Part shown: positions 2,798 to 40,578 of the stretch, one piece after another
How positions within the stretch are numbered: the first letter of the stretch is position 1
Layout: each line of letters begins with the position of its first letter
Source of the DNA: an uncultured Candidatus Saccharibacteria bacterium
GTDB lineage: Bacteria > Patescibacteriota > Doudnabacteria > UBA920
Assembly (NCBI GenBank): GCA_964504715.1
Contig: CAZDEP010000002.1
Location: 21,434-85,433, forward strand
DNA: 64,000 nucleotides
Direction of reading: 5' to 3'
Made by a program: the position numbers and the translations under genes
The notes under the pieces: generated by a model
Seen by the model: only the letters and a program-made list of their open reading frames with translations
Databases searched by the model: none
Told to the model about the DNA's origin: nothing

Positions 2798-3748
2798 CTA
2801 CTTTGATAAGGCAAATAATTTTTTAGCATTCTCTGTGGTAATTTTTTCAACTTCCTCCAGTGATAGATTTTTAATTTTTGCCACTCTTTCCGCCACGTGC
2901 TTTACGTAAAGCGGTTCGTTGCGTTTGCCTCGGTGCGGGACGGGAGTCAAATACGGCGAATCGGTTTCTAGAACAATCCTGTCAATGGGAACAGTTTTAA
3001 CCACTTCTTCCATATTTCCGCTTTTATCGAATGTAATTATACCATTTAAACCCACATACGCGCCGCGCTTTATAAATTCCTGAACGATCCCCGGACTACC
3101 GGTAAAGGAATGGATTTCAAACCGCAACCCCTCCCCTTCCCTCCCCTCATAAGGGGAGGGAGTAAGGGAGAGGTGGGCTTCTTGATCTAAAATTTGAAGT
3201 ATATCCTCGTACGCGTCCTGTGAACCCGCGCTCGGCCGGCAATGAATTACCAAAGCTTTATTTGCCTCTTTCGCCAATCTGATTTGCTGGACAAACGCAT
3301 CTTTTTGCAGCTTTTTAATTTCCTGATGACGGTCTTCTTGCCCCGCAAGAAGACCGTCATCTTGCGGCAGGCGGTAGTAGTCAAGCCCGCATTCGCCAAT
3401 GCCTACTACTTTTGGACTGTCCGCAAGTTTCCGATACGCCTCAAAGTCAAATTTTTCTTCACGTGATAAAAAACTTGTCTCTTCTTCATCCAAATGCTGC
3501 GAATAAGTATGGACCGGATGCAGCCCTATTACCGCATAAACGCCACCCCTTCCTCTCTCCTCCCCCCTAGAGGGGGAGGAAGGGTAGGGGGGATATTTTT
3601 CAGCAAGATCAACGGCCTGGCGTGATGTATCGATCTGTGTACCCACGTTTACAACCCACACGCCCGCTTCCAAAGCCCGGCCAATGGTTTGGTCGACGTC
3701 TTCGGCAAAAGCCTTAAAATTCACATGGGCGTGAGTGTCTATAAGCAT
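2798..3748 (-). CDS. TatD-family metal-dependent hydrolase/DNase
   Basis: MLIDTHAHVNF... N-terminus and TatD-like length; contains two in-frame palindromic repeat insertions (PYPSSPSRGEERGRGG; LTPSPYEGREGEG) and an in-frame terminator-like hairpin (DDGLLAGQEDRH). Confidence 0.8.
   Translation of the reverse strand: MLIDTHAHVNFKAFAEDVDQTIGRALEAGVWVVNVGTQIDTSRQAVDLAEKYPPYPSSPSRGEERGRGGVYAVIGLHPVHTYSQHLDEEETSFLSREEKFDFEAYRKLADSPKVVGIGECGLDYYRLPQDDGLLAGQEDRHQEIKKLQKDAFVQQIRLAKEANKALVIHCRPSAGSQDAYEDILQILDQEAHLSLTPSPYEGREGEGLRFEIHSFTGSPGIVQEFIKRGAYVGLNGIITFDKSGNMEEVVKTVPIDRIVLETDSPYLTPVPHRGKRNEPLYVKHVAERVAKIKNLSLEEVEKITTENAKKLFALSK
3125..3176. repeat. Family-1 GC-rich palindromic element (copy A), in-frame in the tatD-like CDS
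   Basis: ctccccttccctcccctcataaggggagggagtaagggagagg. Confidence 0.8.
3326..3360. repeat. Family-3 terminator-type hairpin repeat located inside the tatD-like CDS (in-frame)
   Basis: atgacggtcttcttg-ccccg-caagaagaccgtcat has the same 15-bp arms as the 24452..24488 terminator; it encodes DDGLLAGQEDRH on the minus strand. Confidence 0.75.
3543..3593. repeat. Family-1-like palindromic element (copy B), in-frame in the tatD-like CDS
   Basis: cccttcctctctcctcccccctagagggggaggaagggtagggggg. Confidence 0.7.
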
Positions 3749-3768
3749 GAAGTAAGAAGTAAGAAAAA

Positions 3769-5256
3769 TTAAACGATCCGTGGAAATAAACGAGGAATAT
3801 TATTTTCTTCAAGATTTTCTAAAGCTTCTAAAATCTTTTTTGAGGTAAGAGGCAAAAACGGCTGCAATGTTAAAGCAATTTTGTACAGTTCTAAAAGCAA
3901 ATGTTCTATATCTTTTTTTGCCCCAGCCTCGTCGGTTTTTATTTTTTTAAACGGCTCGGTTTTTTGGATGTATTCGTCGCACTCGCCAACTTTTCGCCAA
4001 ATCCCATCCATCACGGCTTTCAAATTATACCCATTCAAATCCACGCCGCCTTCATTCTTAATTCTTAATTCATAATTCATAATTCCGGCGTTCGCTGCCA
4101 TTTTTAAAACCCTGGAAGTCAAATTCCCTATCCCGTTGGCCAAGTTGGCGTTGTAGCTTTCTATAAACCTCTCCCAGGTGTAGTCGCCGTCTTCAAAGGT
4201 GGAAATTTCTCGTAAAAGATAATACCTTAAAGCGTCTATTGCCTGCTCTTTGCTGAGGCCTTTTTGCTCCAGTTGGTTTAAAATTTGGTAGGGGTCGGCC
4301 ACATTGCCCAAAGACTTGGACATTTTTTGCCCGCCCGAAGTTATAAAACCGTGGATAATAATTTGGCGAGAGTTGGGCAGGCCGGCCGACATAAGCATCG
4401 CCTGCCACATTGCCGACTGCTGGCGCAAATTATCCTTGCCGGCAATTTGAACGGCATTGAGCTGTTCTTTCGTGCCCCAAAATTCCTCAAATTTTGATTT
4501 TTGATTTTTGATTTTTGATTTATCATCAGGCCAGCCTAGGGTTGAAACATAATTTATAAGCGCGTCGAACCACACATACATAACCTGCTTTTCGTCCCCC
4601 GGCACCGGCACGCCCCAGGGCATTTTTTCCTTCAGGCGCGAAATGGAAAAATCCTGCAGTCCCCTTTTGACGAATTCCTTTATTTCATTGAATCTAAAAT
4701 CCGGCACGACAAAATCGGGATATTTTTTGTACAAATCCAGAAGCGGCTGTTGGTATTTGGAAAAACGGAAAAAATAATTTTCTTCCTCAATGGTTTCTAT
4801 TTTCAAATTGGGATGGATGGGGCACTGCCCGTTTTCGTCCAAATCACTCTCGGTTTTTTCCAACTCGCAGCCCACGCAATATTTAACATGGTAATTTTTT
4901 TTGTATATATCCCCATTGTCCGAGCAGAGTTTCCAAAACTCCTGGCATGCCTGTTTGTGCCCGGCGTCGGTGGTACGGATAAAATGGATGTCCGGCAAAA
5001 CCCCCAGCGCCGGCATTAATTTTTTAAACTTTTCCGCGTATTCATCTACATAGCTTTGCGTGTCTTTGCCTTCCTCGGCGGCTTTCCGGTAAATTTTCAG
5101 GCCGTGTTCGTCGGTGCCTGTATTAAAAAACACTTCCTGGCCCAAGAGTTTATGGAAGCGCGCAATGGCGTCAGCCTGCACGATTTCCAATGCAAAACCC
5201 AAATGCGGGTCCGAATTCACATAGGGCAAAGTGGTGGTAATATAAAATTTGTCCAT
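3769..5256 (-). CDS. metG: Methionine--tRNA ligase (short form)
   Basis: TTLPYVNSDPHLGFALE (HIGH-variant), GTDEHGLKI, KMSKSLGN; 495 aa. Carries an in-frame family-2 repeat (GIMNYELRIKNEG) and a 7-mer tandem repeat. Confidence 0.9.
   Translation of the reverse strand: MDKFYITTTLPYVNSDPHLGFALEIVQADAIARFHKLLGQEVFFNTGTDEHGLKIYRKAAEEGKDTQSYVDEYAEKFKKLMPALGVLPDIHFIRTTDAGHKQACQEFWKLCSDNGDIYKKNYHVKYCVGCELEKTESDLDENGQCPIHPNLKIETIEEENYFFRFSKYQQPLLDLYKKYPDFVVPDFRFNEIKEFVKRGLQDFSISRLKEKMPWGVPVPGDEKQVMYVWFDALINYVSTLGWPDDKSKIKNQKSKFEEFWGTKEQLNAVQIAGKDNLRQQSAMWQAMLMSAGLPNSRQIIIHGFITSGGQKMSKSLGNVADPYQILNQLEQKGLSKEQAIDALRYYLLREISTFEDGDYTWERFIESYNANLANGIGNLTSRVLKMAANAGIMNYELRIKNEGGVDLNGYNLKAVMDGIWRKVGECDEYIQKTEPFKKIKTDEAGAKKDIEHLLLELYKIALTLQPFLPLTSKKILEALENLEENNIPRLFPRIV
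4053..4086. repeat. Family-2 AT-rich repeat (aattatgaattaagaatt core), in-frame in metG
   Basis: cattcttaattcttaattcataattcataattcc; the reverse complement encodes GIMNYELRIKNEG. Confidence 0.7.
4489..4521. repeat. Heptanucleotide tandem repeat (gattttt x ~4.5) inside metG
   Basis: aattttgatttttgatttttgatttttgattt, in-frame as DKSKIKNQKSKF. Confidence 0.7.
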
Positions 5257-5414
5257 GGTGTTTTAAAGGCTCACAAATCCCTTTTCCAACCCTACTGCAA
5301 TGCTTTCCGTAGTAGTTGCCTGATTTATCAGGCTATCGTGATAGGATGTTTAAAGGCTCACACTTACAGTGTGAGCCTTTAAATTATAGCGATTTTTAAG
5401 GGTTTAAACAAATT

Positions 5415-10493: not shown

Positions 10494-10545
10494 TCTTCTC
10501 TCCCTCCCCTTCTGAGGGGAGGGATTAAGGGAGAGGTTGCGATTA
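10494..10545. repeat. Family-1 palindromic element (copy C), intergenic
   Basis: ttctctccctccccttctgaggggagggattaagggagaggttgcg fills the 51-bp gap between the M24 peptidase start and the DUF559 gene stop. Confidence 0.8.
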
Positions 10546-10926
10546 AACTAAACATGTTTGCTTAATTTTTTCCAATACTCCTTCAATATTTTTATCAACA
10601 TCAATATTCTGGAATCTTAAAACTTTATAACCGGACTTTTCAGCGTATTCCTGTTTTACTTTATCGTGAATTAAGTTAACCGGTTCGCTGTGCTGCCCCC
10701 CGTCTAATTCAATTAATAACATTTTACTTCGGCAACTAAAATCAAAAACATACGAGCCAATTTGGACTTGGCGCTTAAATGGCAACCCGTAAAATCTATT
10801 TGCTCTTAAATATTGCCACAATTTTATTTCCCAAGGATTTTTATTCTTTCTCAAATCTCTGGAATAAGTTAGGTAAGGCTCAGGGATAATGCGGTTCATA
10901 TGCAACCTCTCTGGCCTAAAGGCCAT
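10543..10926 (-). CDS. DUF559-type endonuclease-like domain protein (Vsr/restriction-endonuclease-like fold)
   Basis: WQYLRANRFYGLPFKRQVQIGSYVFDFSCRSKMLLIELDGGQHSE...YKVLRF is typical of DUF559; the likely true start is MNRII at ~10899. Confidence 0.6.
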   Translation of the reverse strand: MAFRPERLHMNRIIPEPYLTYSRDLRKNKNPWEIKLWQYLRANRFYGLPFKRQVQIGSYVFDFSCRSKMLLIELDGGQHSEPVNLIHDKVKQEYAEKSGYKVLRFQNIDVDKNIEGVLEKIKQTCLV

Positions 10927-12332: not shown

Positions 12333-12522
12333 GCTAGTTATATTAATTGTATAACTTTCCCATTTCTAACGGGATCCATCAAGTCATTTTCAGACATTTA
12401 ACGATTTTTTGCCATTGCGAGTAGGACGAAGCAATCTAATTACCAGATCGCCGCGGCCTTTTTTAGCCTCGCGATGACGCACTAATATTTATGTTTATTA
12501 TATCAAAAACCCGTGCTACTTG

Positions 12523-13680
12523 CTACTTACTACCTGCTACTTCCCTATAACTCTTTACCATTTCCCCAAAATAATCGTACTGTATTGCCGTGCGAATTTT
12601 TTGCATTAAGTTCAAATAGAATTTCAGGTTGTGCATTGTTGCCAGGCGAATGGCCAAAGGCTCGCCCGTGGCAAACAGGTGCCGAAGGTAAGACTTGGTG
12701 TGGTTAAGACACAGATAACAGTCACAGGCATTGTCTACGGGCGTAAAGTCTTCCTTATATTTTTCAAGACGAATATCTATAGTACTATAACCTTCTTGCT
12801 GGCCCTTAGCGCTAATATACAACCTCCCATGCCTCGCTTCCCTTGTTGGAATAACACAATCAAAAGTGTCACACCCCCGCGCTGCGGCCTGCACAATATC
12901 AAACGGCGTGCCCACGCCGAGCAAATGTTTGGGAGCGTTTTCAGGTAAATAAGGCATGGCAGCTTCCACGGCTTTCATCATTTCCTCGTGCGGCTCCCCA
13001 ACAGCCACGCCGCCAATGGCAAAACCTTCAAAGCCCAAATTCACCATATCCTGAGCCGATTGTTTACGAAGGTCCGGGAAAGATGCTCCCTGCACAATCC
13101 CCCATAATTTTTGGCCGCGATTTATGGGGTCGCCATCTATAACTATTTTTTGATGTTCTTTAATTGCGCGCTCGGCCCATCTTTTAGTCAGCGCGATTGA
13201 TTCCTTGCTCCGCTCATATTCAAACGGATAGCCCGGAAAATCGTCCAATATTAACGCAATGTCGCTGCCCAAATTTGCCTGGATGTCTACCGATTTTTCC
13301 GGAGATAACACCTCTTGTTTTCCATCAAGGTCAAATTGGAATAAAACTCCCACCTCCATAACTTTACGCATTTTGGATAAAGAAAAAACCTGAAAGCCCC
13401 CGCTGTCGGTAAAAATGGGCCCTTTCCAATTCATAAACTTATGCAGTCCACCGGCTTTGTAAATAAGTGCGTCGCCCGGGCGCTGCCAAAGGTGGTAAGT
13501 GTTGGCCAAAACCATTTCCGCGCCCCAGAATTTCAGCTCTTCGGCCGTTACCGATTTTACCGCACCCTTGGTGCCAATAGGCAAAAACGCCGGCGTATGC
13601 ACATCGCCGTGAGCGGTATGGATAATCCCCGTTCTGGCTTTCAATGACGGGTCGGATTTTAAAATTTCAAAATAGGACAT
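12523..13680 (-). CDS. tgt: Queuine tRNA-ribosyltransferase (tRNA-guanine transglycosylase)
   Basis: MSYFEILKSD...TGIIHTAHGDVHTPAFLPIGT...CDCYLCLNHTKSYLRHL zinc subdomain. Confidence 0.9.
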   Translation of the reverse strand: MSYFEILKSDPSLKARTGIIHTAHGDVHTPAFLPIGTKGAVKSVTAEELKFWGAEMVLANTYHLWQRPGDALIYKAGGLHKFMNWKGPIFTDSGGFQVFSLSKMRKVMEVGVLFQFDLDGKQEVLSPEKSVDIQANLGSDIALILDDFPGYPFEYERSKESIALTKRWAERAIKEHQKIVIDGDPINRGQKLWGIVQGASFPDLRKQSAQDMVNLGFEGFAIGGVAVGEPHEEMMKAVEAAMPYLPENAPKHLLGVGTPFDIVQAAARGCDTFDCVIPTREARHGRLYISAKGQQEGYSTIDIRLEKYKEDFTPVDNACDCYLCLNHTKSYLRHLFATGEPLAIRLATMHNLKFYLNLMQKIRTAIQYDYFGEMVKSYREVAGSK

Positions 13681-16173: not shown

Positions 16174-16279
16174 AAGACGGGCAAATGAACGAGACTGTCT
16201 GTATCATCATAAAAGATGAAAGTACAAGTCTGCGCGATATCTACCAGCCTTTTGAAACTTAACTAATTAATTCTGACTT

Positions 16280-16997: not shown

Positions 16998-17164
16998 TGC
17001 TTTGTCCGTCTCGATTATAATCGAGACGCCTTCTCTTCACGAAATGAATTGCGGCGCTAGTTCACGGGGGCCGCATTACAGATTCATCCGTGGATTAATT
17101 TATGCATTTATTATAATAGATTTAAGGATTTTTGTAAACCCCGTTAGAAAACCGAGAATGGCGG

Positions 17165-18157
17165 TCACTCTGGGGCTAAAGCCGCCAAATACTCTATAAA
17201 ATTTTCAAAAACATTATACTCGGTGTATTGTTCAAAACTTTTTAGCCCCGGAAAACGGTTGACCTCCAAAATATAAAACTTGCCGTTTTTTTCCAATATG
17301 TCGACTTTGGCCAGTTCCCTGCCCAATGTGCGAGATGCTTTTTCGGCGAGTTTAATAAGCTTTCCATACTTGTCATTGCGAGCCCTGAATGCATCTGAAG
17401 GGCGTGGTAATCTATTCTCATAGATTGCCTCCACCTTCGCTGAAGCTTCGGCGGACAGGTCGGATGCACTCGCAATGACAGAAAAAGAATCAAAATCCAC
17501 CCTTCCGAATTTCTTATTAAATCTAAATCTTAAAATTACCGGCAATGCCTTATACCCGACCGTAATAATTTTATATTCATAATCCGCCTCTATATATTCC
17601 TGCCACATCCATTCGTTTAAAGGATGCCGGCCAATGATATTTTGGAATTTGAAATTTGAAATTTGGGAATTTATGTGAAAAGTGCCTCTGGCCTTTAGTC
17701 CATATACCCACTTTAATATAAAAGTGCTTAGTGCTTCCGCCTTCGCCAAAGCTTTAGCGGACAAGAAGCGCTTGGTGCCAAGTTTAGAACCATAATTCAT
17801 AATTCTTGATTCATACTTCCAAGTTTTAGGGATAAGGAGGCCGGTTTTTTTTAGATTTTTATAGTCTTCCCATTTACCTTTGCCTAAATTGCCTTGGGTT
17901 ATATTTTCATCTACCACCCTGCCGCCCTGGGCTTGAAAGCTTTGGGCAAGCTTTATAATTTTTTCCAAATAATCCGCTTTATCCTTTAAATAGGGATTCC
18001 GAATATATAAAACATCGCCCCCAAGCGTCGTAAGCTGAAAATTGCAGGCGGCAAGATCGGCAATGTCCATAATTCTTAATTCATAATTCTTAATTCTCGC
18101 TTCCAAAGCGAGCCTGTTTGCCGCGTAAGCGCTTTTTGGGGAGATAAGGTAAATCAT
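17165..18157 (-). CDS. ATP-grasp family ligase (RimK/glutathione-synthetase-like)
   Basis: ATP-grasp-like C-terminal half (…YILEVNRFPGLKSFEQ); contains two in-frame family-2 repeats (ARIKNYELRIMD; YESRIMNYGS). Confidence 0.6.
   Translation of the reverse strand: MIYLISPKSAYAANRLALEARIKNYELRIMDIADLAACNFQLTTLGGDVLYIRNPYLKDKADYLEKIIKLAQSFQAQGGRVVDENITQGNLGKGKWEDYKNLKKTGLLIPKTWKYESRIMNYGSKLGTKRFLSAKALAKAEALSTFILKWVYGLKARGTFHINSQISNFKFQNIIGRHPLNEWMWQEYIEADYEYKIITVGYKALPVILRFRFNKKFGRVDFDSFSVIASASDLSAEASAKVEAIYENRLPRPSDAFRARNDKYGKLIKLAEKASRTLGRELAKVDILEKNGKFYILEVNRFPGLKSFEQYTEYNVFENFIEYLAALAPE
17791..17820. repeat. Family-2 repeat, in-frame in the ATP-grasp gene
   Basis: cataattcataattcttgattcatacttcc; encodes WKYESRIMNYG. 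Confidence 0.6.
18068..18097. repeat. Family-2 repeat, in-frame in the ATP-grasp gene (tandem 14-mer)
   Basis: cataattcttaattcataattcttaattc; shares an identical 19-mer (aattatgaattaagaatta, on the reverse complement) with the metG copy; encodes RIKNYELRIMD. Confidence 0.7.
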
Positions 18158-18187
18158 ACCTATAATACTAGCTTATTTTTGCACAAA

Positions 18188-18370: not shown

Positions 18371-19408
18371 ATGGAAACTACCCCCTCCCCTACAAAGCCT
18401 AATATGAGCGGATTGCGCAAAGCCATTATGGACTTTTTGGAATACTGTGAAATCGGCAAAAACCAGAGCCGCAATACCATTGCGGCTTATTACCGCTACC
18501 TGGATAAATTTGAGCGCTTTGCCCAAGGCATTAAATTAAAAGATGCCAAAGACATTACCTTAGATGTAATTAACCGCTACCGGCTTTATTTAAACCGCCT
18601 GGAAGACGAAGACGGCCGGACACTTAAACTAATTACCCAAAACTACCATTTAATAGCCCTCAGGGCATTCTTAAAATACCTGACCAAGCAGGATGTTAAA
18701 ACCTTGTCCCCGGAAAAAATCGAATTGCCCAAAAACCCCCAACGGCAGGTGGAATTTTTGGAAAACGATGAACTGCAAAGGTTATTCGACGCCACCAACC
18801 AGGAAACGGACGAAACTTCCCGCTTAAGGGATTATGCGATTTTGCAGACTTTGTTTTCCACCGGCCTCCGCGTTTCCGAACTGGCTTCCCTCAAAAAGGA
18901 CAATATAAACCTCGAACGCCACGAATTTACCGTACGCGGCAAAGGCAGCAAGTTAAGGCTGGTGTTTTTAAGCGATACCGCGGCAGAAGCCATAAAAAAA
19001 TACCTGGCTAAACGCCGGGACAATAACAAGGCTTTGTTTATCGCCCATTCCAAAATCGGAGAATCAGTGGAAAAACAAATGGAAAGCCAACAGGCAACCT
19101 CTCCCCTTCCCTCCCCTCATAAGGGGAGGGTGGCCGAAGGCCGGGAGAGGTTGAGATTTTTTGGCCTGACTCCCCGCTCTATCCAACGGATTATTAAAAA
19201 ATATTGCCTGATTGCGGGGATCGTAAAAAAAGTGACCCCGCACACCCTCCGGCATTCCTTTGCGACGGACTTGCTGCAAAATGGCGCGGATATAAGGAGC
19301 GTGCAAACCCTTTTAGGCCACTCCTCCATAACCACAACCCAAATTTATACCCACATAACAAACCAGGGACTAAGGGACATTCATAAGAAATACCACAATA
19401 AGAAGTAA
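18371..19408 (+). CDS. Tyrosine site-specific recombinase (XerC/XerD-like)
   Basis: C-terminal HTLRHSFATDLLQNGADIRSVQTLLGHSSITTTQIYTHI (R..H..R..Y catalytic box); interrupted in-frame by palindromic element E (ATSPLPSPHKGRVAEGRERLRFF). Confidence 0.8.
   Translation: METTPSPTKPNMSGLRKAIMDFLEYCEIGKNQSRNTIAAYYRYLDKFERFAQGIKLKDAKDITLDVINRYRLYLNRLEDEDGRTLKLITQNYHLIALRAFLKYLTKQDVKTLSPEKIELPKNPQRQVEFLENDELQRLFDATNQETDETSRLRDYAILQTLFSTGLRVSELASLKKDNINLERHEFTVRGKGSKLRLVFLSDTAAEAIKKYLAKRRDNNKALFIAHSKIGESVEKQMESQQATSPLPSPHKGRVAEGRERLRFFGLTPRSIQRIIKKYCLIAGIVKKVTPHTLRHSFATDLLQNGADIRSVQTLLGHSSITTTQIYTHITNQGLRDIHKKYHNKK
19095..19153. repeat. Family-1 nested palindromic element (copy E), in-frame in the xerC-like CDS
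   Basis: caacctctccccttccctcccctcataaggggagggtggccgaaggccgggagaggttg. Confidence 0.85.
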
Positions 19409-19536
19409 GAGGTATGAAGCAAGAATTAAGGTTAAGACAAATCAAAAAGCCTACGTACATCTACGTAGGCTTTTTCAATTTCTGCGCCTCATGTTTTTCC
19501 CTTAATTCTTAATACTTAATTCTTACTTCTTGCTTC
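19399..19536. repeat. Inverted pair of family-2-related A/G-rich repeats flanking the 19444..19476 terminator
   Basis: aagaagtaagaggtatgaagcaagaattaagg (19399..19436) vs ccttaattcttaatacttaattcttacttcttgcttca (19499..19536). Confidence 0.55.
19444..19476. terminator. Bidirectional rho-independent terminator between convergent genes
   Basis: aaaaagcctacgta-catc-tacgtaggcttttt perfect hairpin with A/T runs on both sides; flanked by inverted family-2 repeats (19399..19436 and 19499..19536). Confidence 0.6.
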
Positions 19537-31616: not shown

Positions 31617-34600
31617 CTATTCTACACCTACTGAAGCAGCTCCCAAGCCACTCTCCCCTGACGGTACAGGATCTTGGGGAGCGATATCATTTGTAGGCTG
31701 TTCGGCTGGAGGCATAGAAGGCTCTGGCGTAATTTCCTCAGGCGTGGTTTGGCTTTCTGGCACTACGATTTCGCTTTCTGGGGCCGGCTCTGTTTGCACG
31801 TCAGGCACAACTGACGCTTCTGTTGCTGGGGTTAGCGCAGCTTCCGCGGGCTGGCTGGGGGCTGATTCCTCCTGGCCTACCCCCTCCCCTGCCGAGGGCG
31901 TAACTTCAGCCGGCTGGTTTGTGCCGCTTTCAGTAAAGGGCAGTGTGAGCGTTATGCCCAACACCTGGCCATCACTGACCGTAAGTTTGGCTTCGGGCGA
32001 GGCAAAGGCATGGAAGTTAAAAGTTACGTCTTCGTCCTGCACATATTTAAGTTCGATAGTAAAGCCTTCGGCCGTGGTGCTGGCTATGCGGTAAGCGCCG
32101 CTTACAAAATCCAAAGGCGTGGCCGTAACTATGGGCTGGTATTCGTACGGTTTTGTAAACGTTACTTTTACTCTCTTTGAGCCGGCCAATATTTTAGCTT
32201 GTCCCACGCTGTCTTGGGAAAGATACACCTGTGTTTTAAAGACTATGGGCGCTTGCGGGTCTACATCACTGCCTGTGTTCTGCAGGTTAGACACCGTCTG
32301 TTGCAGGCTGTTTATTTTTTCATCCAATGCCTTTATGCCCACCAAAGCTACACCGGAAGGATCTATGGTGGAAATGGCAGTGTCGGACCCACCCAAGCCA
32401 AAGGATGCGTAAAAGTCCTGGGCTGTTGGGCCTAAGTGGGTTATGGATGCATCTTCCCGCTTATAGTTCCATTTGGCTATGGGTAAATTTACTATCTTTT
32501 CTAAAATAGATGCAGGCGTAACCGAAGCAAAATTTTCCTTCAAATTCCTGTCCGAAGCATTGGTCCACGTACCCCCCGCCGTCACATACGCCCCACTAGC
32601 CATAGTTAACGGGCCCAGTGTGGGAGTGGTTGTGCCAACGCCAACATTGCCGGTTCCTGTTAATATCTCTATTCCCCGTCCCGCAGTAGCGTCCGCCCAC
32701 AATTCCAAACTTTTACCTGCCGTCGCATAAACTGATGCGTCAGCTCCATTGGCTATTCCAGCTCCAGCCCCGCCACGACCTCCACCAAAGCCAACCGTAG
32801 CTGCAGCAGTGATACTACTGACAGATAAAGCATTAGAAAGATACAAATTCCTTGGCCTGTTAGCCCCACTTGCCCCAATATCCCAAGTGTTATCCGTGCC
32901 AAACAATAACGCTCCACGCATAGTAGTAGTTCCATTTACATCCAAAGTTGTCGCAGGACTCGTCGTCCCAATCCCAACGTTGCCGCTCTTTTCAATTAAC
33001 AATCTGACATTACCTCCAGCACCATTATTCTCATTCCCAATTATGAAATCACCGGTGTTGCTCCAGCCACCTTGTCCAATTACCCATGCATCGTTGGTAT
33101 CTGTACCAGCAACATCATCAAAGAATCCAATTTCAGATTCTCCTCCGGCAGCGGAAGGCGAAAATCTAGCAAGCCCATAATAAGAATCGGTGGATCCAGT
33201 TCCTGCAACGTGTAATTTATGCGAAGGCCCCGTCGTCCCGATGCCGACGTTGCCATTACTTAATATTGACATTACATCCGTAGCCGGAGCAACACCACTC
33301 GCCGAACCAACCTTAAACTCCAATGCTCCTCGCGTAGTAAGCCCGTCTGCAATCATCCAGTTCCTGTCCGAGACATTCCCGCTTCCGCTGTAAAAACTCA
33401 TTCTTGGCGATGAATCGTTATTGGTCGCGATTCTTAATTGCGCCGATGCCCCTTCCATATGCAACAACGTGGCCGGACTCGTCGTCCCAATCCCAACGTT
33501 GCCTGTTGATTGTTTTACTGTAAATGGAGTAGCTGCAGCAGAGTTGTCATACAGAGCAAAATCGCCTGCATTATTTAGACCAGAGTACATTGTCCATGTT
33601 TTTCCACCAGCTTTACCGTCTTTAAGTTGAATATAAGGAATATCGGCCGTAGAACCTTCTACTATAAAAGTTCCTCTAACCGACCCACCTCCAACATGAA
33701 GCAGCGCACTCGGACTCGTCGTCCCGATGCCGACGTTGCCGCCGCCTTCAATCGTCATTCTCATAACACTATTGGTACCAAACTGCAATGGGTAGTTTTG
33801 CCATACATTTATTGCGGCTGCATATGGTAACGACCCTGTACCAAATATCCCACCAGTACTTCTATCCAAACCAATTTGTAATTGGTTATTTCCATTAATC
33901 CATCTGGAAATTACATAATTGGTTGATGTGGTAGATTTTATTTGGGTATCTGCTGTAGGAGCTTGGATATCTAGAATCTTTGCCGGATCTGTCGTCCCAA
34001 TGCCAACGTTGCCTTGATTTGTTATGACCATTAAACTTGTCCCACTACTCGAGGCCACATTGAACGGATCAATCGTTCCTGAACCTTTTATATCCACCGT
34101 ATACGTAGGCGAACTATTGTTAAAACCAATTTTATTATTCCCATTTAAAATGGTTATGGCAGAACCACCATTTGCCCCCAAACCCAAAGTTTTGGGTCCA
34201 GTTGTTTGGAGATAGCCACCTGTAGTATCCACGTACAGTCCCACACTGGCCCCCGATGCTCTTGTGACCACCATCCCCCAACCATTTGCGGACAAATAAT
34301 TTTCCTGTAAATAATTTGGAGCCGTCGTCCCAATCCCCACATTCCCGCTCGGGGTGACGGTGAGGAGCGAGGTGCCGGTTGAGGAATTTACCTGGAAAGG
34401 ATTTAATGTGCCGGTGCCTTGGACTAAGAAGCTAACGGTGGAAGATGTGGCATTTACCCCGGAAACTGTACCGTTGTCTATTAGGGTACCAACAGTAAGT
34501 CCGGTGGATGATGCCCAGGTTGCCACATACCCCTTTACTCCCCCAGCCAAAGATCCGCCACTGGCTCCGCAGTCTATGCCGGCAGTTATTACATTACCGC

Positions 34601-37600
34601 TGTTGTCTACCCTCAAACACTGCATACCGCCGCCGGCTAAGGTAGGCAACAAAAGGGCGTTTATGGAAGTCTTGCCTGTGGCAGTATTTACATAGAATGT
34701 GGATGTTGATGATGTAGCAACATTTAAGTTTCCATACACATCCAACTTTGCTATTGGTGATGATGTGCCAATACCAACGTTGTCGGAAGCATTGACGACC
34801 AACCCTGAACCGGAATTCCCTGTCCGATTTAAAGTCATTAAGCCATAGGTATTGTCGTAAAACAAATATCCGCGAAGATTAGACCCCTGCGTAAACTGAA
34901 TTTGCGGCAGAGAAGTTGCGCCGCCGTCGATTCTCAGAGTAGTACTACCGCTGCTTGCCACATGCAATGCCGTTTGCGGACTCGTGGTGCCTATGCCAAC
35001 GTTGCCGTAATTTGTAATCCTCATTTTTTCGTCCGCAGCCGCTACTTGTTGGTACGCGCTACCGCCATTGGTTATGGTCAAAAACACTATGTCTCCGGTA
35101 CCGCCCGAACCGTTTGTCGCCTGGACTGCGCCAATAAACTGCTTTTGTGAAGTATCATTGCCTGAATACAGCCCTAAACGCATACCCACAAAATTCCCGG
35201 GCTGACCTGCAATATTATTTAACGTAAGTCCGTTTGTGACACTGTTTGAAGAGCCGTCCGCGTAAGTTATATATAGTTTGGAATTCGGCGCCAGGCCATT
35301 CCCCGTACCCACCGCTCCTATGCCAATATTTCCCGAAGGGAAAACTGTTAGCACATGCGCTCCGGTGGATGAAGAAATGGTAAACATATTACTGGACCCG
35401 CTGCCCTGAACATGCAAACTTGCAAGCGGTGTGCCCGTGCCAATACCCACGTTGCCGCTGGTACCCAAAACCGTTAAACGCGTGGTCGTGCCGTTGTTAG
35501 CCAAAATCGAAAGCGTTGAAGTCGCGCCTTGGCCTGCGCCTTCTTGGATGTTTAATGTTGTTACACCCGTAGCAGCGGTGCCGTCGTACACCAGCAACGT
35601 ACCGTTACCTATGGTTTGCGCCGCGCCCTGCCTGCCTATTACCACGGAATTCGGGGAAGACACGCTGCCATTTATGCCTATCATTTCCACTGTGCCACCG
35701 GAATTACCAATAAACAAATTGCTGGAATTTGCCCGCGCGAACAAATGCAAGCCCTGGGTTGTAAACTTTAATTCCGCACCGTTGCCAGCTTGGGATTTTA
35801 TATTTACCCCAACGTCGTTTGTGCTTTGTACGGTTAAGCCAGCAAAAGCCGAAGTGGTTACAATATGCAGCGTATCGCCCGGCGTGGAAGTGCCAATACC
35901 TACCCTGCTAGTGCCCGTATTTGCAAACAAAACAGATGTTGATGATGTAGCAACATTTAAGTTTCCATACACATCCAACTTAGCCAAAGGCGACGTGGTC
36001 CCAATGCCAACGTTGCCGAGTAAATATGAATTGCCAGTCCCTACACTTATTGTCCCGCCCGTAACCAAGTTGCCTGAACTGTCTACAACAAGTTGTGTGG
36101 ACGAACCGGCAGAGGTCGTAAGCGTTCCGGATGTCCCACCATAAGTTGACCAAGATGATGTGTATGGCGGAATTTGTCCTGCAATGATTCCGCTATACCA
36201 TTCAACACTAAGATTGCCCAAAACAGGAGTAATCCTCCAAGAAGGGTCACCATTATTCCACAAATACCAATTGCCACCGACCAATTTGTAATAATTGTAA
36301 TTATTGTATCTACCCGCATAAGTATAAGTCCCGGCCGGATTACCGCTTCCTGAAGTACAACCTGGACAACTAACAATAACCGGCAAAACCGAATTGGTCC
36401 CAATTGTAGCCGTCAACCCATTTATATCTCCAGCAGAACTTACCGTGAACTGATTATTATTCCCAACTGTTAACAATTGACTCGGACTCGTCGTCCCAAT
36501 ACCAACGTTGCCATCGTTTTTAATATACATCTGGGTCGCCGCTCCAGCATTTGTAGAGAAAAGAATATTACCACTGGCGCTCCTAATAACTAAGTCATCT
36601 TGAACAGACCCCAAAGATAAGTTATTCGCGCCGCCGGCAAGGCCTACCAAACCTTTATCCACGCCGGCATGCTTGAGGCCAAAGAACCCATTTGTAGAAG
36701 AATAATCAATGTAAGCGGTCGCCTGTGTACCGTAAATATGCAACAATCCGCTCGGCGCCGTGGTGCCAATGCCGATGTTGCCGGTATTACCTTGAATGGT
36801 CAGGCGCTCCTGTTCAGCACTGCCGGTCCAGGTTTTAAAACGCAAATACCAGTTGGTGCCGTCATACACATTGTAAATACCTCCCAGGTTCGCGCCGGTG
36901 GCGCTATATCTAAATCTTACCGCCTGCCCCGTTCCCGAGCTGGCCCCCCCATCGTTGTCCAAAATTAACCCTGTAACATTCCCATTACTTGCCTTATAAA
37001 CATGGAGAGCATCAAGTGGACTTGTCGTCCCAATTCCGACGTTGCCGGCAGAAGTAACGCGTAAATAGGAAGCGCCTGATGAAGACGCTATATCTAAAAT
37101 ATCTACCGTGGATGAAGCAACTACTGACAACGAAACTGACGGACTTGAAGTATTTATGCCAACCTTATTATAGGTATTACTTAAAAAGAGGGCTGGTGTG
37201 AATGCGGCGGTGTTTGAACCTTGGCCAATAGACAATCCTCCAACCGCATTGCCATTGTTACGAAGTTCTCCCAAATACCATTCGGGAATAGAACCGAGTC
37301 CAAATTGTATTTGTGCGGCACGGGTGTTAGAGGAACGGCTAATTAACATACCGGCGCCCCCCGCCGAACCTATGTTGTTAATAAAAACCGGAATTGTATC
37401 GGTGGTGGTACTGGCAGTCACATTAAACAAAGCGATTGGACTCGTAGTCCCAATGCCGACGTTACTACCTTTTAAAGTCATAACTGAAGTTCCACCTATT
37501 TGGAAATCCGTATACATAGTGCCCGCGCTTACGCCGCCGCCGCTGTTGGCCACATTTATTATTAAAGGTTTCTGGTTAGAAGTTGCGGAATTAGCCAGAA

Positions 37601-39179
37601 GCGTGGTGCCGTTTATATTTTCGGTAATGGAAAAATATTGGTTTACGTTAGTGCTGTTGTCCCTGGTGAACCTCGCTACTTCGTTGCTATTTCCCACAAC
37701 ATGCAAAACCGAAACGGGACCACTCGTCCCAATACCAACATTGCCCGAACTGTAATAAATGCTTCCGTTCGTGGAAGTGGACCAGGTGGCGCCGGCTACG
37801 GAAATATTTGCCCAGGAAAGCTGGCCTGAGCCGTTGGTAACTAACACTTGGTTAGCCGAGCCATCCCCTCCCGGCCAAGCGTAAGCTATGCCGCCTAAAG
37901 TGGTCGTGGCAAAAGAAACCGTGCCGGTAAAGTTAGCGGCACCGGAAACATTTATTTGGTCGCTGACATTCAAAACATTTATTTGTGTCTTATCCGAAGA
38001 AAAATAAGTAAAAGAACCTATGGTGCCGTTGCCCGTGCCCCCGGGGTTGCTCGTATTCACATAGCCCAAACTCCATCCCCCGCCCTGAAGCGAAGAGCTC
38101 CCCGACGCCCCCTGCGCCCCCGTTTCGCCCCTTTCCCCTTTTTCACCCTTTTCCCCCTTGAATTTCCCTTCTGCCAAATATTGCTTTAAGCGCTCGTCCA
38201 CCAATTGACTTAAGGTGTTCGTGTCCACCGGGGCGATTGTTTCTCCCAACACCCTCCCGGAAATTTTGAGGGTTTTTTTCGGCAATTCCTTTAAGGAAAT
38301 TTTGGGAATGTAAATAGTCTCAACGATTTCCGGAGCTTGGAATTCGCTTCCGCCGAAGAACGGGGATTCCGACCAACGCGGCTTTTGCATTTGCAAAGCC
38401 AGCGCGTAAATTTTGCCTGCAGTTTTTTGGGCCTCGTCTAGGGCTGCGCGCTTAATTTGCAAAGGCGCGGATTTTATAACCTCGCCAAAGCCTTGTTTAA
38501 TTTCGGCCCAGCCCAAACGCGAAGGAAGGTTTTTTACTTTTTCCCACGCAAAAAGCCTTAGCTGCCTGCCGGCATTTGGTGCGGAAATTTTAGGGTCATT
38601 TGCGAAGGAAGGTTTTTTAAAAATAAAGGTATAAAATATTTTTTCTCCCGCGGCTTTCCCTTCTTTGCCAAAAAGGCTGCCGGAATAATCAGCGCGGGGT
38701 GCAACAATTGTCTTACCCAAAACTTTTGGCTGCCGGTTTTCCGCAACAAGCCTGGATGGCCCGTTTTGGTCGTGCGAAGCCAAAACCAGATTGGCTTTGC
38801 TTATTGCCGCGGTTTCATTTTTTGTTGACTGCTTATACCACAGGGTGGAAAAAACTATGCCGAAAATCAAAACCAAATGCGCGGCGGTTATGGCAAACCA
38901 CATGGGCCAGCGCGAGCTAAGTATACCGTAAGTTTTTCGCTTGCTTACCGAATCTACATTTTTTTTAGGCAAAGCTCCGCAGGCGCGGCACGATTCCATT
39001 GCCCTTAGCAGGTGCGCAAGACCTTCCACTTGGGGCAAATGGCTTTTAGGTATTGGCCGCGCAGGAATCATCTCCCGCAAAGAAACCGGTGGCACCCTGA
39101 CAGGCACAATAAACTTCAGTCCGGGCGGCATGTGGCGGCCGGGCCTGCCATATTTCAAAATCAAAAGCAGCCTTTTCAT
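31617..39179 (-). CDS. Giant (2520-aa) membrane-anchored fibre protein with collagen-like triplets, tail-fibre-like repeats and a Peptidase_S74 intramolecular chaperone domain
   Basis: Single uninterrupted ORF. N-terminal TM (WPMWFAITAAHLVLIFGIVFSTLWY). GEKGEKGERGETGAQGASG collagen-like stretch (nt ~38100..38160). YAWPGGDGSANQVLVTNGSGQLSW phage-fibre-like motif. About 19 repeats with core (S/T)GNVGIGTTSPxxxLHV. ASDRNLKENF...WNYKREDASITHLGPTAQDFYASFGL...VALVGIKALDEKINSLQ (S74 chaperone, nt ~32290..32560), then about 225 aa with a P/E/T-rich tail. The true start codon is uncertain (MPPGL, MESCRAC and MWFAI are alternatives). Confidence 0.9.
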   Translation of the reverse strand: MKRLLLILKYGRPGRHMPPGLKFIVPVRVPPVSLREMIPARPIPKSHLPQVEGLAHLLRAMESCRACGALPKKNVDSVSKRKTYGILSSRWPMWFAITAAHLVLIFGIVFSTLWYKQSTKNETAAISKANLVLASHDQNGPSRLVAENRQPKVLGKTIVAPRADYSGSLFGKEGKAAGEKIFYTFIFKKPSFANDPKISAPNAGRQLRLFAWEKVKNLPSRLGWAEIKQGFGEVIKSAPLQIKRAALDEAQKTAGKIYALALQMQKPRWSESPFFGGSEFQAPEIVETIYIPKISLKELPKKTLKISGRVLGETIAPVDTNTLSQLVDERLKQYLAEGKFKGEKGEKGERGETGAQGASGSSSLQGGGWSLGYVNTSNPGGTGNGTIGSFTYFSSDKTQINVLNVSDQINVSGAANFTGTVSFATTTLGGIAYAWPGGDGSANQVLVTNGSGQLSWANISVAGATWSTSTNGSIYYSSGNVGIGTSGPVSVLHVVGNSNEVARFTRDNSTNVNQYFSITENINGTTLLANSATSNQKPLIINVANSGGGVSAGTMYTDFQIGGTSVMTLKGSNVGIGTTSPIALFNVTASTTTDTIPVFINNIGSAGGAGMLISRSSNTRAAQIQFGLGSIPEWYLGELRNNGNAVGGLSIGQGSNTAAFTPALFLSNTYNKVGINTSSPSVSLSVVASSTVDILDIASSSGASYLRVTSAGNVGIGTTSPLDALHVYKASNGNVTGLILDNDGGASSGTGQAVRFRYSATGANLGGIYNVYDGTNWYLRFKTWTGSAEQERLTIQGNTGNIGIGTTAPSGLLHIYGTQATAYIDYSSTNGFFGLKHAGVDKGLVGLAGGANNLSLGSVQDDLVIRSASGNILFSTNAGAATQMYIKNDGNVGIGTTSPSQLLTVGNNNQFTVSSAGDINGLTATIGTNSVLPVIVSCPGCTSGSGNPAGTYTYAGRYNNYNYYKLVGGNWYLWNNGDPSWRITPVLGNLSVEWYSGIIAGQIPPYTSSWSTYGGTSGTLTTSAGSSTQLVVDSSGNLVTGGTISVGTGNSYLLGNVGIGTTSPLAKLDVYGNLNVATSSTSVLFANTGTSRVGIGTSTPGDTLHIVTTSAFAGLTVQSTNDVGVNIKSQAGNGAELKFTTQGLHLFARANSSNLFIGNSGGTVEMIGINGSVSSPNSVVIGRQGAAQTIGNGTLLVYDGTAATGVTTLNIQEGAGQGATSTLSILANNGTTTRLTVLGTSGNVGIGTGTPLASLHVQGSGSSNMFTISSSTGAHVLTVFPSGNIGIGAVGTGNGLAPNSKLYITYADGSSNSVTNGLTLNNIAGQPGNFVGMRLGLYSGNDTSQKQFIGAVQATNGSGGTGDIVFLTITNGGSAYQQVAAADEKMRITNYGNVGIGTTSPQTALHVASSGSTTLRIDGGATSLPQIQFTQGSNLRGYLFYDNTYGLMTLNRTGNSGSGLVVNASDNVGIGTSSPIAKLDVYGNLNVATSSTSTFYVNTATGKTSINALLLPTLAGGGMQCLRVDNSGNVITAGIDCGASGGSLAGGVKGYVATWASSTGLTVGTLIDNGTVSGVNATSSTVSFLVQGTGTLNPFQVNSSTGTSLLTVTPSGNVGIGTTAPNYLQENYLSANGWGMVVTRASGASVGLYVDTTGGYLQTTGPKTLGLGANGGSAITILNGNNKIGFNNSSPTYTVDIKGSGTIDPFNVASSSGTSLMVITNQGNVGIGTTDPAKILDIQAPTADTQIKSTTSTNYVISRWINGNNQLQIGLDRSTGGIFGTGSLPYAAAINVWQNYPLQFGTNSVMRMTIEGGGNVGIGTTSPSALLHVGGGSVRGTFIVEGSTADIPYIQLKDGKAGGKTWTMYSGLNNAGDFALYDNSAAATPFTVKQSTGNVGIGTTSPATLLHMEGASAQLRIATNNDSSPRMSFYSGSGNVSDRNWMIADGLTTRGALEFKVGSASGVAPATDVMSILSNGNVGIGTTGPSHKLHVAGTGSTDSYYGLARFSPSAAGGESEIGFFDDVAGTDTNDAWVIGQGGWSNTGDFIIGNENNGAGGNVRLLIEKSGNVGIGTTSPATTLDVNGTTTMRGALLFGTDNTWDIGASGANRPRNLYLSNALSVSSITAAATVGFGGGRGGAGAGIANGADASVYATAGKSLELWADATAGRGIEILTGTGNVGVGTTTPTLGPLTMASGAYVTAGGTWTNASDRNLKENFASVTPASILEKIVNLPIAKWNYKREDASITHLGPTAQDFYASFGLGGSDTAISTIDPSGVALVGIKALDEKINSLQQTVSNLQNTGSDVDPQAPIVFKTQVYLSQDSVGQAKILAGSKRVKVTFTKPYEYQPIVTATPLDFVSGAYRIASTTAEGFTIELKYVQDEDVTFNFHAFASPEAKLTVSDGQVLGITLTLPFTESGTNQPAEVTPSAGEGVGQEESAPSQPAEAALTPATEASVVPDVQTEPAPESEIVVPESQTTPEEITPEPSMPPAEQPTNDIAPQDPVPSGESGLGAASVGVE
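34702..35991. repeat. Intragenic near-identical direct repeats inside the giant gene (for example a 47-bp copy at 34702..34748 and 35934..35991, plus ~17 copies of the ggactcgtcgtcccaatgccaacgttgcc motif)
   Basis: Seen directly: gatgttgatgatgtagcaacatttaagtttccatacacatccaact occurs twice; the GNVGIGTT-encoding 30-mer recurs with 80-100% identity through 32970..37750. Confidence 0.8.
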
Positions 39180-39427: not shown

Positions 39428-39688
39428 TAAATTGTGGTTTTTTTGTTTGTTTCAAACCAAAGATGCCGGATTTTGGGCATTTTTGATTGTTTCACCGAGC
39501 CTCTATAGGCTATCCGATACTTTTCTACTTATATCTTAGCACAATTTTTGAGTTTTGTCTAGAGGTAAGAGCACTTTTTTATTTTTCCTTTTTATAAAAA
39601 TAAAATTTTAGACTTCTTTAATAAATTCATTAAAATATTCATTAAAATTTTTATTTGTTTCCCTGCCATAAAATGTTAAAATAGCTTT

Positions 39689-40564
39689 ATGCCTACCATT
39701 TGCTTCGGCCAACAGCCCAACGGCTTTTTCCCCAAAAACTTTTTTGTCGCTAAAATTCTAACAGCCCAAAAACTCCAAAAAGATTTGGGCGGCAAGATAG
39801 CGTTTTTTTACCATGACTCCGACGCCGACTACCGCGAAACCGTAACTGTCTTAAAAGACAAAGCCACGGGCTCGGAAGTACGCCTGAACTTTTTTCAGGA
39901 AAATAAAATCCAAAAAAATTTTTCGCCGCTGTATGCAAAAAGGATAGTCCCCTCCCCCACAGCGGAAGGGAAAGGAGTGGAAGGCTGGAAAGAAGAAATT
40001 TTAAAACAGCTACCGAGGTTTATTCACCCTCCCCTAACCCCTCCCCTCAAGGGAGGGGAAACTACTGCATCCCCCTCTGCTTTAAGCGAAGGACAAGGCT
40101 TGGACTTGATTGATATTTTTAAATCCGTAGATGCCAATACCGTCGCGGATTTCTGCCTGGAGATATACAAAAAAATGGGCTTGCTGGAAGGAGTGGAAAT
40201 TTACCGATCTTCCGACAAAAATTTCCGGCTCAACGCTTTAGATTTAAGCCAGGAATACTTTGCCGACATTCTTTACCAAAACGAAGCTGTCCGGGCAAAA
40301 AAAACTTCTAACGGCTTTCAGCTCCACAAAGGCGGCGGGCAATTTATAGACCTGCCCGAAGAGCCCGTGGAAAAAACCCAAAAGACCCCCGCTGCCAAAG
40401 AACGCTTTGCCTGGATGAACAGCGTCATAAACTGCACCCACTATATTTACGGCGAAGGCGAAGCGCAGTATATGGACTTTAAGGAACATCCTAAGGTACA
40501 ATTCATTCAGCGCGATATAATTGATAACCCGACCCTCGCTTGGTTATCTACCCTTAATTCATAA
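39689..40564 (+). CDS. hypothetical protein (291 aa) upstream of the bshB-like gene, carrying an in-frame palindromic element
   Basis: MPTICFGQQPNGFFP...; insert HPPLTPPLKGGETTASPSA is encoded by element F. Confidence 0.45.
   Translation: MPTICFGQQPNGFFPKNFFVAKILTAQKLQKDLGGKIAFFYHDSDADYRETVTVLKDKATGSEVRLNFFQENKIQKNFSPLYAKRIVPSPTAEGKGVEGWKEEILKQLPRFIHPPLTPPLKGGETTASPSALSEGQGLDLIDIFKSVDANTVADFCLEIYKKMGLLEGVEIYRSSDKNFRLNALDLSQEYFADILYQNEAVRAKKTSNGFQLHKGGGQFIDLPEEPVEKTQKTPAAKERFAWMNSVINCTHYIYGEGEAQYMDFKEHPKVQFIQRDIIDNPTLAWLSTLNS
40023..40077. repeat. Family-1 palindromic element (copy F), in-frame in hypothetical CDS
   Basis: caccctcccctaacccctcccctcaagggaggggaaactactgcatccccctc. Confidence 0.8.
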
Positions 40565-40578
40565 TTCATACTTCTATG
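40552..40578. repeat. Family-2 repeat at a gene junction (stop of 39689..40564 / start of the bshB-like gene)
   Basis: ccttaattcataattcatacttctatg. Confidence 0.55.

Follow-up and report, generated by a model that had tools for sequence, protein, structure and literature searches.

Heptanucleotides are the commonest long simple sequence repeats (SSRs) in bacteria, and neither the preference for 7 nt nor the spread of the units is understood. One heptamer family of cyanobacteria goes by the name of short tandemly repeated repetitive (STRR) sequences. As related in two later papers (PMC4679880, PMC4692102), the survey of Mrazek et al. (2007) found heptanucleotide long SSRs (LSSRs) mainly in Burkholderia, Xanthomonas, cyanobacteria, and actinobacteria, with polymerase slippage proposed as their cause, and one of the two (PMC4692102) also cites the STRR heptamers of heterocystous cyanobacteria (Calothrix/Nostoc). 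According to Rehm et al. (2015, PMC4692102), the GGGAATC/GGGGAYT heptamers of Xanthomonas and Nostoc obey an orientation rule and tend to form arrays of about four units. In marine Beggiatoaceae, TAACTGA repeats stand in 2–6 copies no more than a few nucleotides before start codons without a Shine–Dalgarno (SD) sequence; one orientation contains stops and is found only at the ends of open reading frames (ORFs), the other is occasionally translated into a 7-aa periodic peptide, and of about 170 sets of repeats no more than 24 touch an ORF, chiefly in hypothetical proteins or at the ends of a protein (MacGregor 2015, PMC4679880). In the amino-acid tandem repeats of Borgs, finally, the unit length is a multiple of 3, and each repeat is of recent origin and unique to its locus (PMC9879509). 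In this work, we analyze a window of 64 kb (the whole stretch of 64,000 nucleotides, positions 21,434 to 85,433 of contig CAZDEP010000002.1, assembly GCA_964504715.1), which the homologues of its methionyl-tRNA synthetase (MetRS) place in Candidatus Doudnabacteria (Patescibacteria, or candidate phyla radiation, CPR). It carries a family of heptanucleotide repeats, with the consensus GAAKTAW on the purine-rich strand and WTAMTTC on the other, inside the MetRS gene metG and a RimK-like ATP-grasp gene, at gene junctions, and beside a terminator-like hairpin. We propose, with a probability of roughly 0.55, that this family is a lineage-preferred heptanucleotide SSR that is kept repetitive by misalignment or conversion in a 7-nt register, is filtered by coding constraints, and is not mobile.

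An initial annotation of the window had read these sequences as copies of a dispersed module built around a 19-mer core. Its coordinates and translations were all confirmed when the sequence was re-read, and its observation that one family lies in-frame in genes, at stop/start junctions, and beside a terminator, far above chance, stands as well; the discrete module does not, each copy being a short tandem array of 2.4–5 heptamer units GAAKTAW arranged head to tail. The units are GAATTAA, GAATTAT, and GAAGTAA, together with the one-base variants GAATCAA, GTATTAA, and GAAGCAA, and there are 7–8 such arrays in the window. The 18-mer AATTATGAATTAAGAATT occurs exactly in the window only at 4060–4077 and 18071–18088, both on the minus strand, whereas none is expected from the dinucleotide-preserving shuffles on which all our chance expectations rest, and the stretch common to the metG and ATP-grasp copies is the 20-mer GAATTATGAATTAAGAATTA. 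When up to 3 mismatches are allowed, the window yields 11 overlapping matches at 5 loci (4053–84, 17794–818, 18071–95, 19504–28, and 40549–73), compared with 0.27 expected, so that the k-mer is far more frequent than base composition would predict. These relaxed matches overlap in 7-nt steps, and Tandem Repeats Finder (TRF) reports a period of 7 at 3749–65, 4050–85, 17791–819, 18068–97, 19501–36, and 40555–74. The window as a whole contains 5 strong period-7 arrays against 0.05 expected and no strong array of periods 5–6 or 8–15, a picture that TRF bears out. Chance or composition is thereby ruled out for both the k-mer matches and the period-7 arrays. An assembly artefact is ruled out as well, because the metG arrays and the junction array recur with 100% identity on three contigs that were assembled independently from other samples.

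Comparison of the 7 GAAKTAW copies in the window revealed no common flanks, ends, inverted termini, or target duplications, and a repeat search of the window recovers the heptamer part only. The copies begin and stop at differing unit phases, and they differ in unit number and variants. Since the flanks have nothing in common, nothing points to a mobile element, and the shared 20-mer exists because metG and the ATP-grasp gene both hold arrays of one unit, not because an element has it as its core.

For comparison, 80 Patescibacteria metG loci were fetched, along with 7 syntenic Doudnabacteria metG loci (L201–L207) and 3 ATP-grasp loci (L208–L210), and the survey covered 289 kb of Doudnabacteria-like DNA and 874 kb of other CPR loci. 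The Doudnabacteria-like DNA contains about 40 GAAKTAW arrays; its period-7 arrays number 35, a density of 12 per 100 kb, whereas no other period from 4 to 12 exceeds 8 arrays. The other CPR loci also hold 35, which amounts to 4 per 100 kb, and no other period there exceeds 20. As in the window, period 7 is the sole period in excess in both sets of loci. The median array has 4.0 units. We also scanned GAATTANGAATTANGAATTA across 185,579 species genomes, and the matches listed (120 loci, L001–L120) include Cyanobacteria, Bacteroidota, Ignavibacteria, Chloroflexota, Acidobacteria, Patescibacteria, and others. Among these listed matches, period-7 arrays number 294, against 5–22 for other periods, and some 90% of the GAATTAN arrays fall outside long ORFs; heptamer arrays are thus widespread, and it is their location inside housekeeping genes that is unusual here. 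In the same listed matches, GAATTAN arrays of other phyla can reach 150–340 nt (L005 5211–5554, L036 2836–2993, L076 6732–6886); GAATTAC, with 59 arrays, is the most frequent variant and GAATTAT, with 49, the next, and many of the 8-kb pieces hold several heptamer arrays.

The intragenic arrays of the Doudnabacteria-like DNA, which make up about two-thirds of the family there, are in the sense orientation in all 28 cases. They can be sense only, because the antisense unit TTAATTC contains TAA and three antisense units block every frame. A sense array, for its part, passes through all three codon phases every 21 nt, and the seventh base of a unit is constrained by the phase in which it falls: within NGA it cannot be T, within ANG it may be any base, and within TAN it must be T or C. 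All 10 orthologous metG arrays obey this phase rule, which produces the alternation of GAATTAA and GAATTAT and results in every such array encoding one periodic peptide, E-L-[R/G]-I-[K/M/R/T]-N-Y. At the level of the sequence, this is direct evidence that the coding arrays are translated and are under purifying selection against stops. In the mechanism that we favor, arrays would arise and stay repetitive through misalignment in a 7-nt register, either by replication slippage or by conversion within an array or from array to array, and selection would filter the outcome: inside genes only the sense orientation would survive, net length changes would come in 21-nt (7-aa) steps, and codon phase would fix the seventh base of each unit in turn. 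What we infer here is the step of slippage or conversion. The 20-mer common to metG and the ATP-grasp gene follows from phase-filtered arrays encoding one periodic peptide, so that no transposition is needed. The initial annotation had placed such copies in essential genes, which holds for metG and does not hold for the RimK-like ATP-grasp gene, as that gene is not known to be essential.

The gene metG occupies 3769–5256 on the minus strand (stop codon 3769–71) and contains the family at its site 2 (4050..4086, minus strand), where 5 units, GGAATTA TGAATTA TGAATTA AGAATTA AGAATGA, encode GIMNYELRIKNE, residues 391–402 of MetRS. In the AlphaFold model this segment is a predicted coil (pLDDT ~60) between the catalytic and anticodon-binding domains. 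At the DNA level, 10 of the 10 close Doudnabacteria orthologues carry a 5-unit array of the GGAATTA type that sets in at corresponding Gly-Ile codons and in the identical frame. Across the 108 orthologues that share an anchor motif, clear peptides of the GAATTAN type are seen in 15 and a GTATAAA-type peptide, IKYKVLSIKY, in 8, and many have a degenerate I.N.E..I.N with the modal length unchanged; distant Patescibacteria have a non-periodic loop of equal length. Thus, for metG, as for site A of the ATP-grasp gene described below, arrays stand at matching codon positions and lengths in Doudnabacteria orthologues, and distant Patescibacteria have no repeat. The insertions implied by the initial annotation do not agree with this pattern, and its question as to whether the NYELRI segment is ancestral receives a divided answer: by these alignments, both arrays are clade-ancestral sequence in Doudnabacteria, not recent insertions, and the ancestry extends no further than the clade.

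It might be argued that no repeat process at the DNA level is involved and that the copies resemble one another through AT-rich composition or through selection, at the level of the protein, for an I-x-N-Y-E-L-x-I peptide. Two facts speak for the peptide, namely that many metG orthologues keep the degenerate I.N.E..I.N at unchanged length, and that the array at ATP-grasp site A corresponds, in the structural model, to the end of a helix and a β-strand, both well folded, and is aligned with a RimK-type motif. The codons, however, tell otherwise. At metG site 2, codon pairs for the same residue are identical in 302 of 345 comparisons, where 174 would be expected from 110 upstream codons, and codon identity at same-residue positions, which is 0.49 in the conserved core, reaches 0.87 within the array; leucine is always TTA, which accounts for 21% of the leucine codons of the window, and glycine is GGA, which accounts for 14%. 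Identity is therefore far above that of the conserved core and of genome usage, and codon bias as the cause of array conservation is contradicted both by this per-amino-acid test and by the codon usage of the window. Moreover, non-coding DNA contains these units too, in either orientation, and composition fails against the dinucleotide shuffles, which give 0–0.27 matches. We regard this explanation as scarcely credible.

A different behavior is seen at metG site 1 (4492..4521, minus strand), where a perfect array of the other unit ATCAAAA (4.3 copies) encodes IKNQKSK (residues 249–255). The window exceeds L201 here by exactly 21 nt, or 3 units, so that unit number varies at site 1 and is constant across species at site 2. 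The units themselves are interchanged, being ATCAAAA in the window, GACAAGA in L121, CAACCCA in L124, AAGTCGG in L125, and CGACTTC in L205, and in L203 (about 10760–10800) and L123 the place is taken by three copies of an octamer, CAAATCAG, which encode QISKSANQ. These findings establish site 1 as a true hot spot at which diverse units are generated in place. The peptide QISKSANQ or a near variant is common to many MetRS orthologues (P0007, P0008, P0013, P0044, and others), and the AAGTCGG and CGACTTC arrays run in opposite orientations. The notion that insertions always add 7 aa is true at this site and was rejected as a general rule, the tatD loop differing by 4 or 8 aa between orthologues.

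The RimK-like ATP-grasp gene (17165–18157, minus strand) holds two arrays of the family. Site A (18068..18103, minus strand) reads GAAGCGA GAATTAA GAATTAT GAATTAA GAATTAT and encodes (EA)RIKNYELRIM (residues 21–30), which aligns without gaps in 28 orthologues, matches the EA...G.E..I.D segment of RimK-type proteins, and forms, in the AlphaFold model, the end of a helix, a turn, and a core β-strand (E27–30) with a pLDDT of ~95. Its units are four GAATTAW copies in the window, L208, and L209, whereas in L210 all are of the GAAGTAA type, and together with the GTATAAA type shared by 8 orthologues at metG site 2 this demonstrates that units change in concert. Site B (17791..17820, minus strand) reads GAAGTAT GAATCAA GAATTAT GAATTAT, encodes KYESRIMNY (residues 114–122), and is the only one of metG site 2 and ATP-grasp sites A and B that varies in presence between orthologues: it was found in P0124, P0125 (L210), and P0140, and not in L208 and L209, which are the closest to the window. 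About 39 nt are identical at site B between the window and L210, although the proteins are only 57–65% identical. Site B lies within a 237-nt segment (17609–17845) that is not alignable between the window and L208, which are otherwise 90–96% identical over 16118–19218, and this segment comprises two heptamer arrays as well as a palindromic insert encoding FLSAKALAKAEALS. The replacement of the whole 237-nt mosaic segment between otherwise 90–96% identical genomes indicates recombination at site B, rather than the insertion of an element. Within the segment, a CAAATTT/CAAATTC array of 3.6 units (17641..17665, minus strand) encodes QISNFKFQ (residues 165–172), and L209 has a perfect array of four CAAATTC units at the counterpart of 17641–17665. 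The four ATP-grasp genomes compared show all four presence/absence combinations of site B and a site designated C, which suggests that lineages have recombined with one another.

These sites also bear on the proposal that a tiny element, mobile or templated, has inserted itself at permissive sites in genes and junctions, in the manner of the Rickettsia palindromic elements (RPE) or of the small dispersed repeats known from cyanobacteria. The recurrence of one unit family, at 7–8 places in the window and about 40 in the 289 kb of related DNA, the patchiness of site B and its identity over about 39 nt between genomes with diverged proteins, the in-frame presence of other, clearly dispersed palindromic elements in the same genes, and a Y1 transposase gene in the syntenic region of L205 would all be compatible with it. 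On the other hand, the copies lack the shared ends, inverted termini, and target duplications of an element and differ in unit number, phase, and variants; metG site 2 and ATP-grasp site A are orthologous throughout the clade and add no net length; unrelated heptamers fill the same hot spots, which an element of fixed sequence cannot explain; and the absence of site B is the replacement of a whole segment. For metG site 2 and ATP-grasp site A the mobile-element proposal is largely refuted, and for the family as a whole we hold it to be very improbable.

Outside genes, the family is found at gene junctions and beside a terminator. At the metG/tatD junction (3746..3768), the plus strand carries 2.4 units of GAAGTAA, and the minus-strand mRNA accordingly reads UUCUUACUUCUUACUUC-AUG, an antisense array flush against the tatD start codon (3746–48). 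Leader arrays abut the tatD ATG also in L201, L207, and L122, and the array is kept in four of the five genomes in which tatD has its own leader and no upstream gene. A second junction array (40552..40578, family on the minus strand) is read in the plus-strand mRNA as TAA TTCATAATTCATACTTCT ATG, again antisense, and links the stop codon (40562–64) of the ORF at 39689–40564 to the ATG (40576–78) of a PIG-L-family gene (40576–41268). Both copies (3749–65 and 40555–74) are thus oriented oppositely, with respect to their genes, to the coding copies, and both stand at stop/start junctions, as originally described. At the end of xerC, a post-stop sense array on the plus strand (19399..19436), which overlaps the stop codon (19406–08), reads TAA GAAGTAA GAGGTAT GAAGCAA GAATTAA GG, and a sense array past the stop of a 61-aa gene on the minus strand (19499..19536) reads GAAGCAA GAAGTAA GAATTAA GTATTAA GAATTAA GGG. 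The two are inverted relative to each other and bracket a terminator-like hairpin (19444–19475; a stem of 14 bp, flanked on each side by runs of T or A) that separates these convergent genes, a geometry that was confirmed; the pair is predicted to fold into a long hairpin over 19399–19536 that encloses the terminator (−51 kcal/mol, z = −10). The xerC post-stop array has an orthologue in L210, and that at 19499–19536 has orthologues in L209 and L210; between the window and L210 the 5-unit length of the terminator flanks is unchanged while whole units are swapped, for example GAAGCAA to GAATTAT. The 61-aa gene itself (19535–19720, minus strand) is Cys-rich (CxxC...CxxC), conserved, convergent with xerC, and also present in L209 and L210. 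An array of the related unit GTAGYAN (12513..12540, minus strand, GTAGCAG GTAGTAA GTAGCAA GTAGCAC) overlaps, in the sense orientation, the stop of the tRNA-guanine transglycosylase (TGT) gene at 12523–13680 (minus strand).

All non-coding arrays of the family in the 289 kb fall into two placement classes. The first is antisense and lies 0–4 nt from a start codon (3749–65 and 40555–74 in the window, the tatD leaders of L201, L207, and L122, position 7968 of L210, and L125), and the second is sense and lies on or just past a stop codon (19399–436, 19499–536, and 12513–40 in the window, with copies in L204, L209, and L210). The conservation of synonymous sites, the concerted change of units, and the conservation of intergenic arrays together mean that the repeat is preserved as DNA or RNA, and either homogenization or selection could account for this.

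Several results weigh against an SSR kept repetitive by misalignment or conversion. Slippage was never directly seen: metG site 2 has 5 units in essentially all 10 orthologues, the lengths of the terminator flanks are fixed between the window and L210, and the three contigs from further samples, which have identical MetRS, are 100% identical and therefore uninformative on copy-number polymorphism. The arrays at metG site 2 and ATP-grasp site A are equal in length to the non-repeat segments of outgroups, and an absence of net length change is not what simple duplication predicts. Unit changes stay within the family (for example GAAGCAA to GAATTAT), placement at starts and stops is strict, and intergenic arrays are conserved above the local background, each of which would be expected just as well of a cis-element under purifying selection. 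An SSR origin also leaves the 7-nt preference itself unexplained.

The alternative that has to be weighed most closely is that the arrays are functional cis-elements under selection, which we consider possible, though on the unlikely side. Three roles are conceivable: antisense UUAAUUC/UUACUUC arrays may act as unstructured, SD-independent leaders directly before starts; post-stop sense arrays may provide a TAA in each frame and lengthen terminator stems; and coding-sense arrays may pair with downstream leader arrays, such as metG site 2 with the tatD leader, and so couple translation. Four of the points just listed (stable copy number, absence of net length change, changes within the family, and placement) favor function over a simple SSR, and so does the fact that all non-coding arrays in the 289 kb are either antisense at starts or sense at stops. 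The tatD leader array is conserved in four of five genomes, as are the synonymous sites of the metG array, and an SD-like motif (GGAG/GAGG/AGGA at −18 to −4) precedes only 7 of the 57 ORFs of the window, an approximate count in which the first start codon was taken as the ORF start; the organism appears to use SD sequences rarely. Parallels exist in the heptamer SSRs of Xanthomonas and Nostoc, with the same orientation rule and the same preference for about four units (Rehm et al., PMC4692102), and in the TAACTGA repeats just upstream of SD-less starts in Beggiatoaceae (PMC4679880), although the four-unit preference of the present family cannot stem from a quadruplex, since GAAKTAW is AT-rich and cannot form a G-quadruplex.

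Evidence from RNA folding is divided. In the minimum-free-energy and centroid folds predicted for the window and for L201, the metG array and the tatD leader pair with each other, and the metG array is the leader's best duplex partner within metG, at −14.8 kcal/mol in the window, −27.9 in L201, and −23.4 in L207, compared with a median of about −5 kcal/mol. The pairing is nevertheless not evidence of selection, because same-family arrays in opposite orientations pair automatically; the fold of the window is no better than that of shuffled sequences (z = −0.6), and four genomes (L203–L206) keep the metG array without a leader partner, so that we rejected metG–tatD pairing as a selected structure. 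Other observations also tell against a cis-acting role: very short intergenic spacers partly force closeness to starts and stops, units interchange freely at metG site 1, and ATP-grasp sites A and B are both sense, with no antisense partner found nearby. Rfam covariance models run over the window reach the gathering score only at 5 tRNAs, none of which overlaps an array, and known RNA families were accordingly discarded as candidates for the arrays.

A further reading, which unites function and conversion and which we think improbable, is that the arrays are actively maintained modular complementary "zippers", whose sense and antisense members pair over hundreds of nucleotides. As RNA, such pairing would couple the translation of neighboring genes, with the metG array and the tatD leader as an example, and as DNA or RNA it would lengthen the stem of a bidirectional terminator. 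The inverted geometry would also permit template-switch conversion of the quasipalindrome type, by which unit variants could be copied between partners, and such conversion could explain arrays without length change, the conservation of synonymous sites, and unit changes within the family.

Returning to the lineage-preferred SSR that we favor, the phenomenon falls among the known heptanucleotide SSRs, with the LSSRs, the STRR sequences, and the TAACTGA and GGGAATC repeats as its relatives, and its affinities with the described systems are partial in each case. With the STRR sequences it shares a few preferred heptamers per lineage and many dispersed short tandem arrays, and GAATTAN arrays occur, among the matches listed, in Nostoc, Scytonema, Calothrix, and Richelia. 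The classic STRR units differ from GAAKTAW. STRR sequences are, moreover, essentially intergenic, whereas the Doudnabacteria arrays are mostly in-frame in genes. Like the heptanucleotide LSSRs, the arrays consist of head-to-tail 7-nt units, show an excess of period 7 over neighboring periods, and have a sporadic phylogeny; in that survey, however, insofar as it is relayed by the later papers, units of a multiple of 3 are the likeliest in coding DNA, and here some two-thirds of the heptamer arrays are intragenic, including that in metG. The TAACTGA repeats are similar in that arrays abut SD-less starts (true of only 2 of the 7 window copies), in that one orientation bears stops, and in that no mechanism of mobility is evident, and they differ in their unit and in that the GAAKTAW arrays lie within conserved enzymes, one of them in a core β-strand, and are orthologously conserved. 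The palindromic mobile elements of Rickettsia known as RPE are reportedly 100–150 bp long, with defined ends. As with these elements and the Borg repeats, repetitive DNA is translated in-frame in conserved proteins here, mostly in surface or low-confidence regions. Unlike the Borg repeats, the arrays are old, share one unit family, and have a 7-nt unit that holds the frame only per 3 units, and unlike MITE-, RPE-, or REP-like elements, they have no common termini, no target-site duplication, and no clean filled and empty sites. Our literature searches found no description of such heptamer repeats in CPR/Patescibacteria. The family thus differs from the described heptamer SSRs in lying mostly inside housekeeping genes, in being stable across a class-level lineage, in the conservation of its synonymous sites, and in its presence in a core β-strand.

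The occurrence of arrays in conserved single-copy genes (metG, tatD, and leuS) makes it possible to align them unit by unit across many metagenome-assembled genomes, and such an alignment reveals the stability of positions, the concerted change of units, the conservation of synonymous sites, and the codon-phase filter. The family also accounts for odd low-complexity peptides of CPR proteins, such as ELRIKNY and IKNQKSK, which might easily be taken for functional motifs, for insertions, or for errors of assembly. If a cis-acting role in these SD-poor organisms were true, the arrays would represent a new layer of gene-expression control.

The neighborhood of the arrays contains other repeats as well. 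The identities of MetRS, TatD, TGT, the RimK-like ATP-grasp protein, the XerC-type integrase, and the PIG-L family protein rest on Pfam. An array of another heptamer, TTTGGAA, lies at 185–215 of the window. A GC-rich palindromic dispersed family, ..CCTCCCCTTCCCTCCCCT-cat-AAGGGGAGGGA.., which is probably the first repeat family of the initial annotation, is found at 3124–3174, 3543–3594, 10501–10537, 19094–19144, 40025–40049, and 46756–46806, two of its copies being in-frame in tatD (PPYPSSPSRGEERGRGG), where orthologues have a gap or other inserts, and one in xerC. A third, small family, of hairpins (GCAAGAAGACCGTC...GACGGTCTTCTTGC), occurs at 3321–3365, 24447–24467, 56983–57018, and 58891–58933; one member lies within tatD, and the rest are terminator-like and lie at gene ends. 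In L205, a gene for a 137-aa Y1 transposase (IS200/IS605-type, PF01797) is located at 13091–13504, between tatD and leuS; it could encode a REP-associated (RAYT-like) enzyme tied to the palindromic families, and no link between it and the heptamers was seen in L205. Lastly, an ORF of 2520 aa (31617–39179, minus strand), which is probably a giant repetitive surface protein, contains at least 13 internal repeats at a spacing of ~240–330 nt or multiples thereof, with the conserved plus-strand motif GGACTCGTCGTCCCAATNCCAACGTTGCC.

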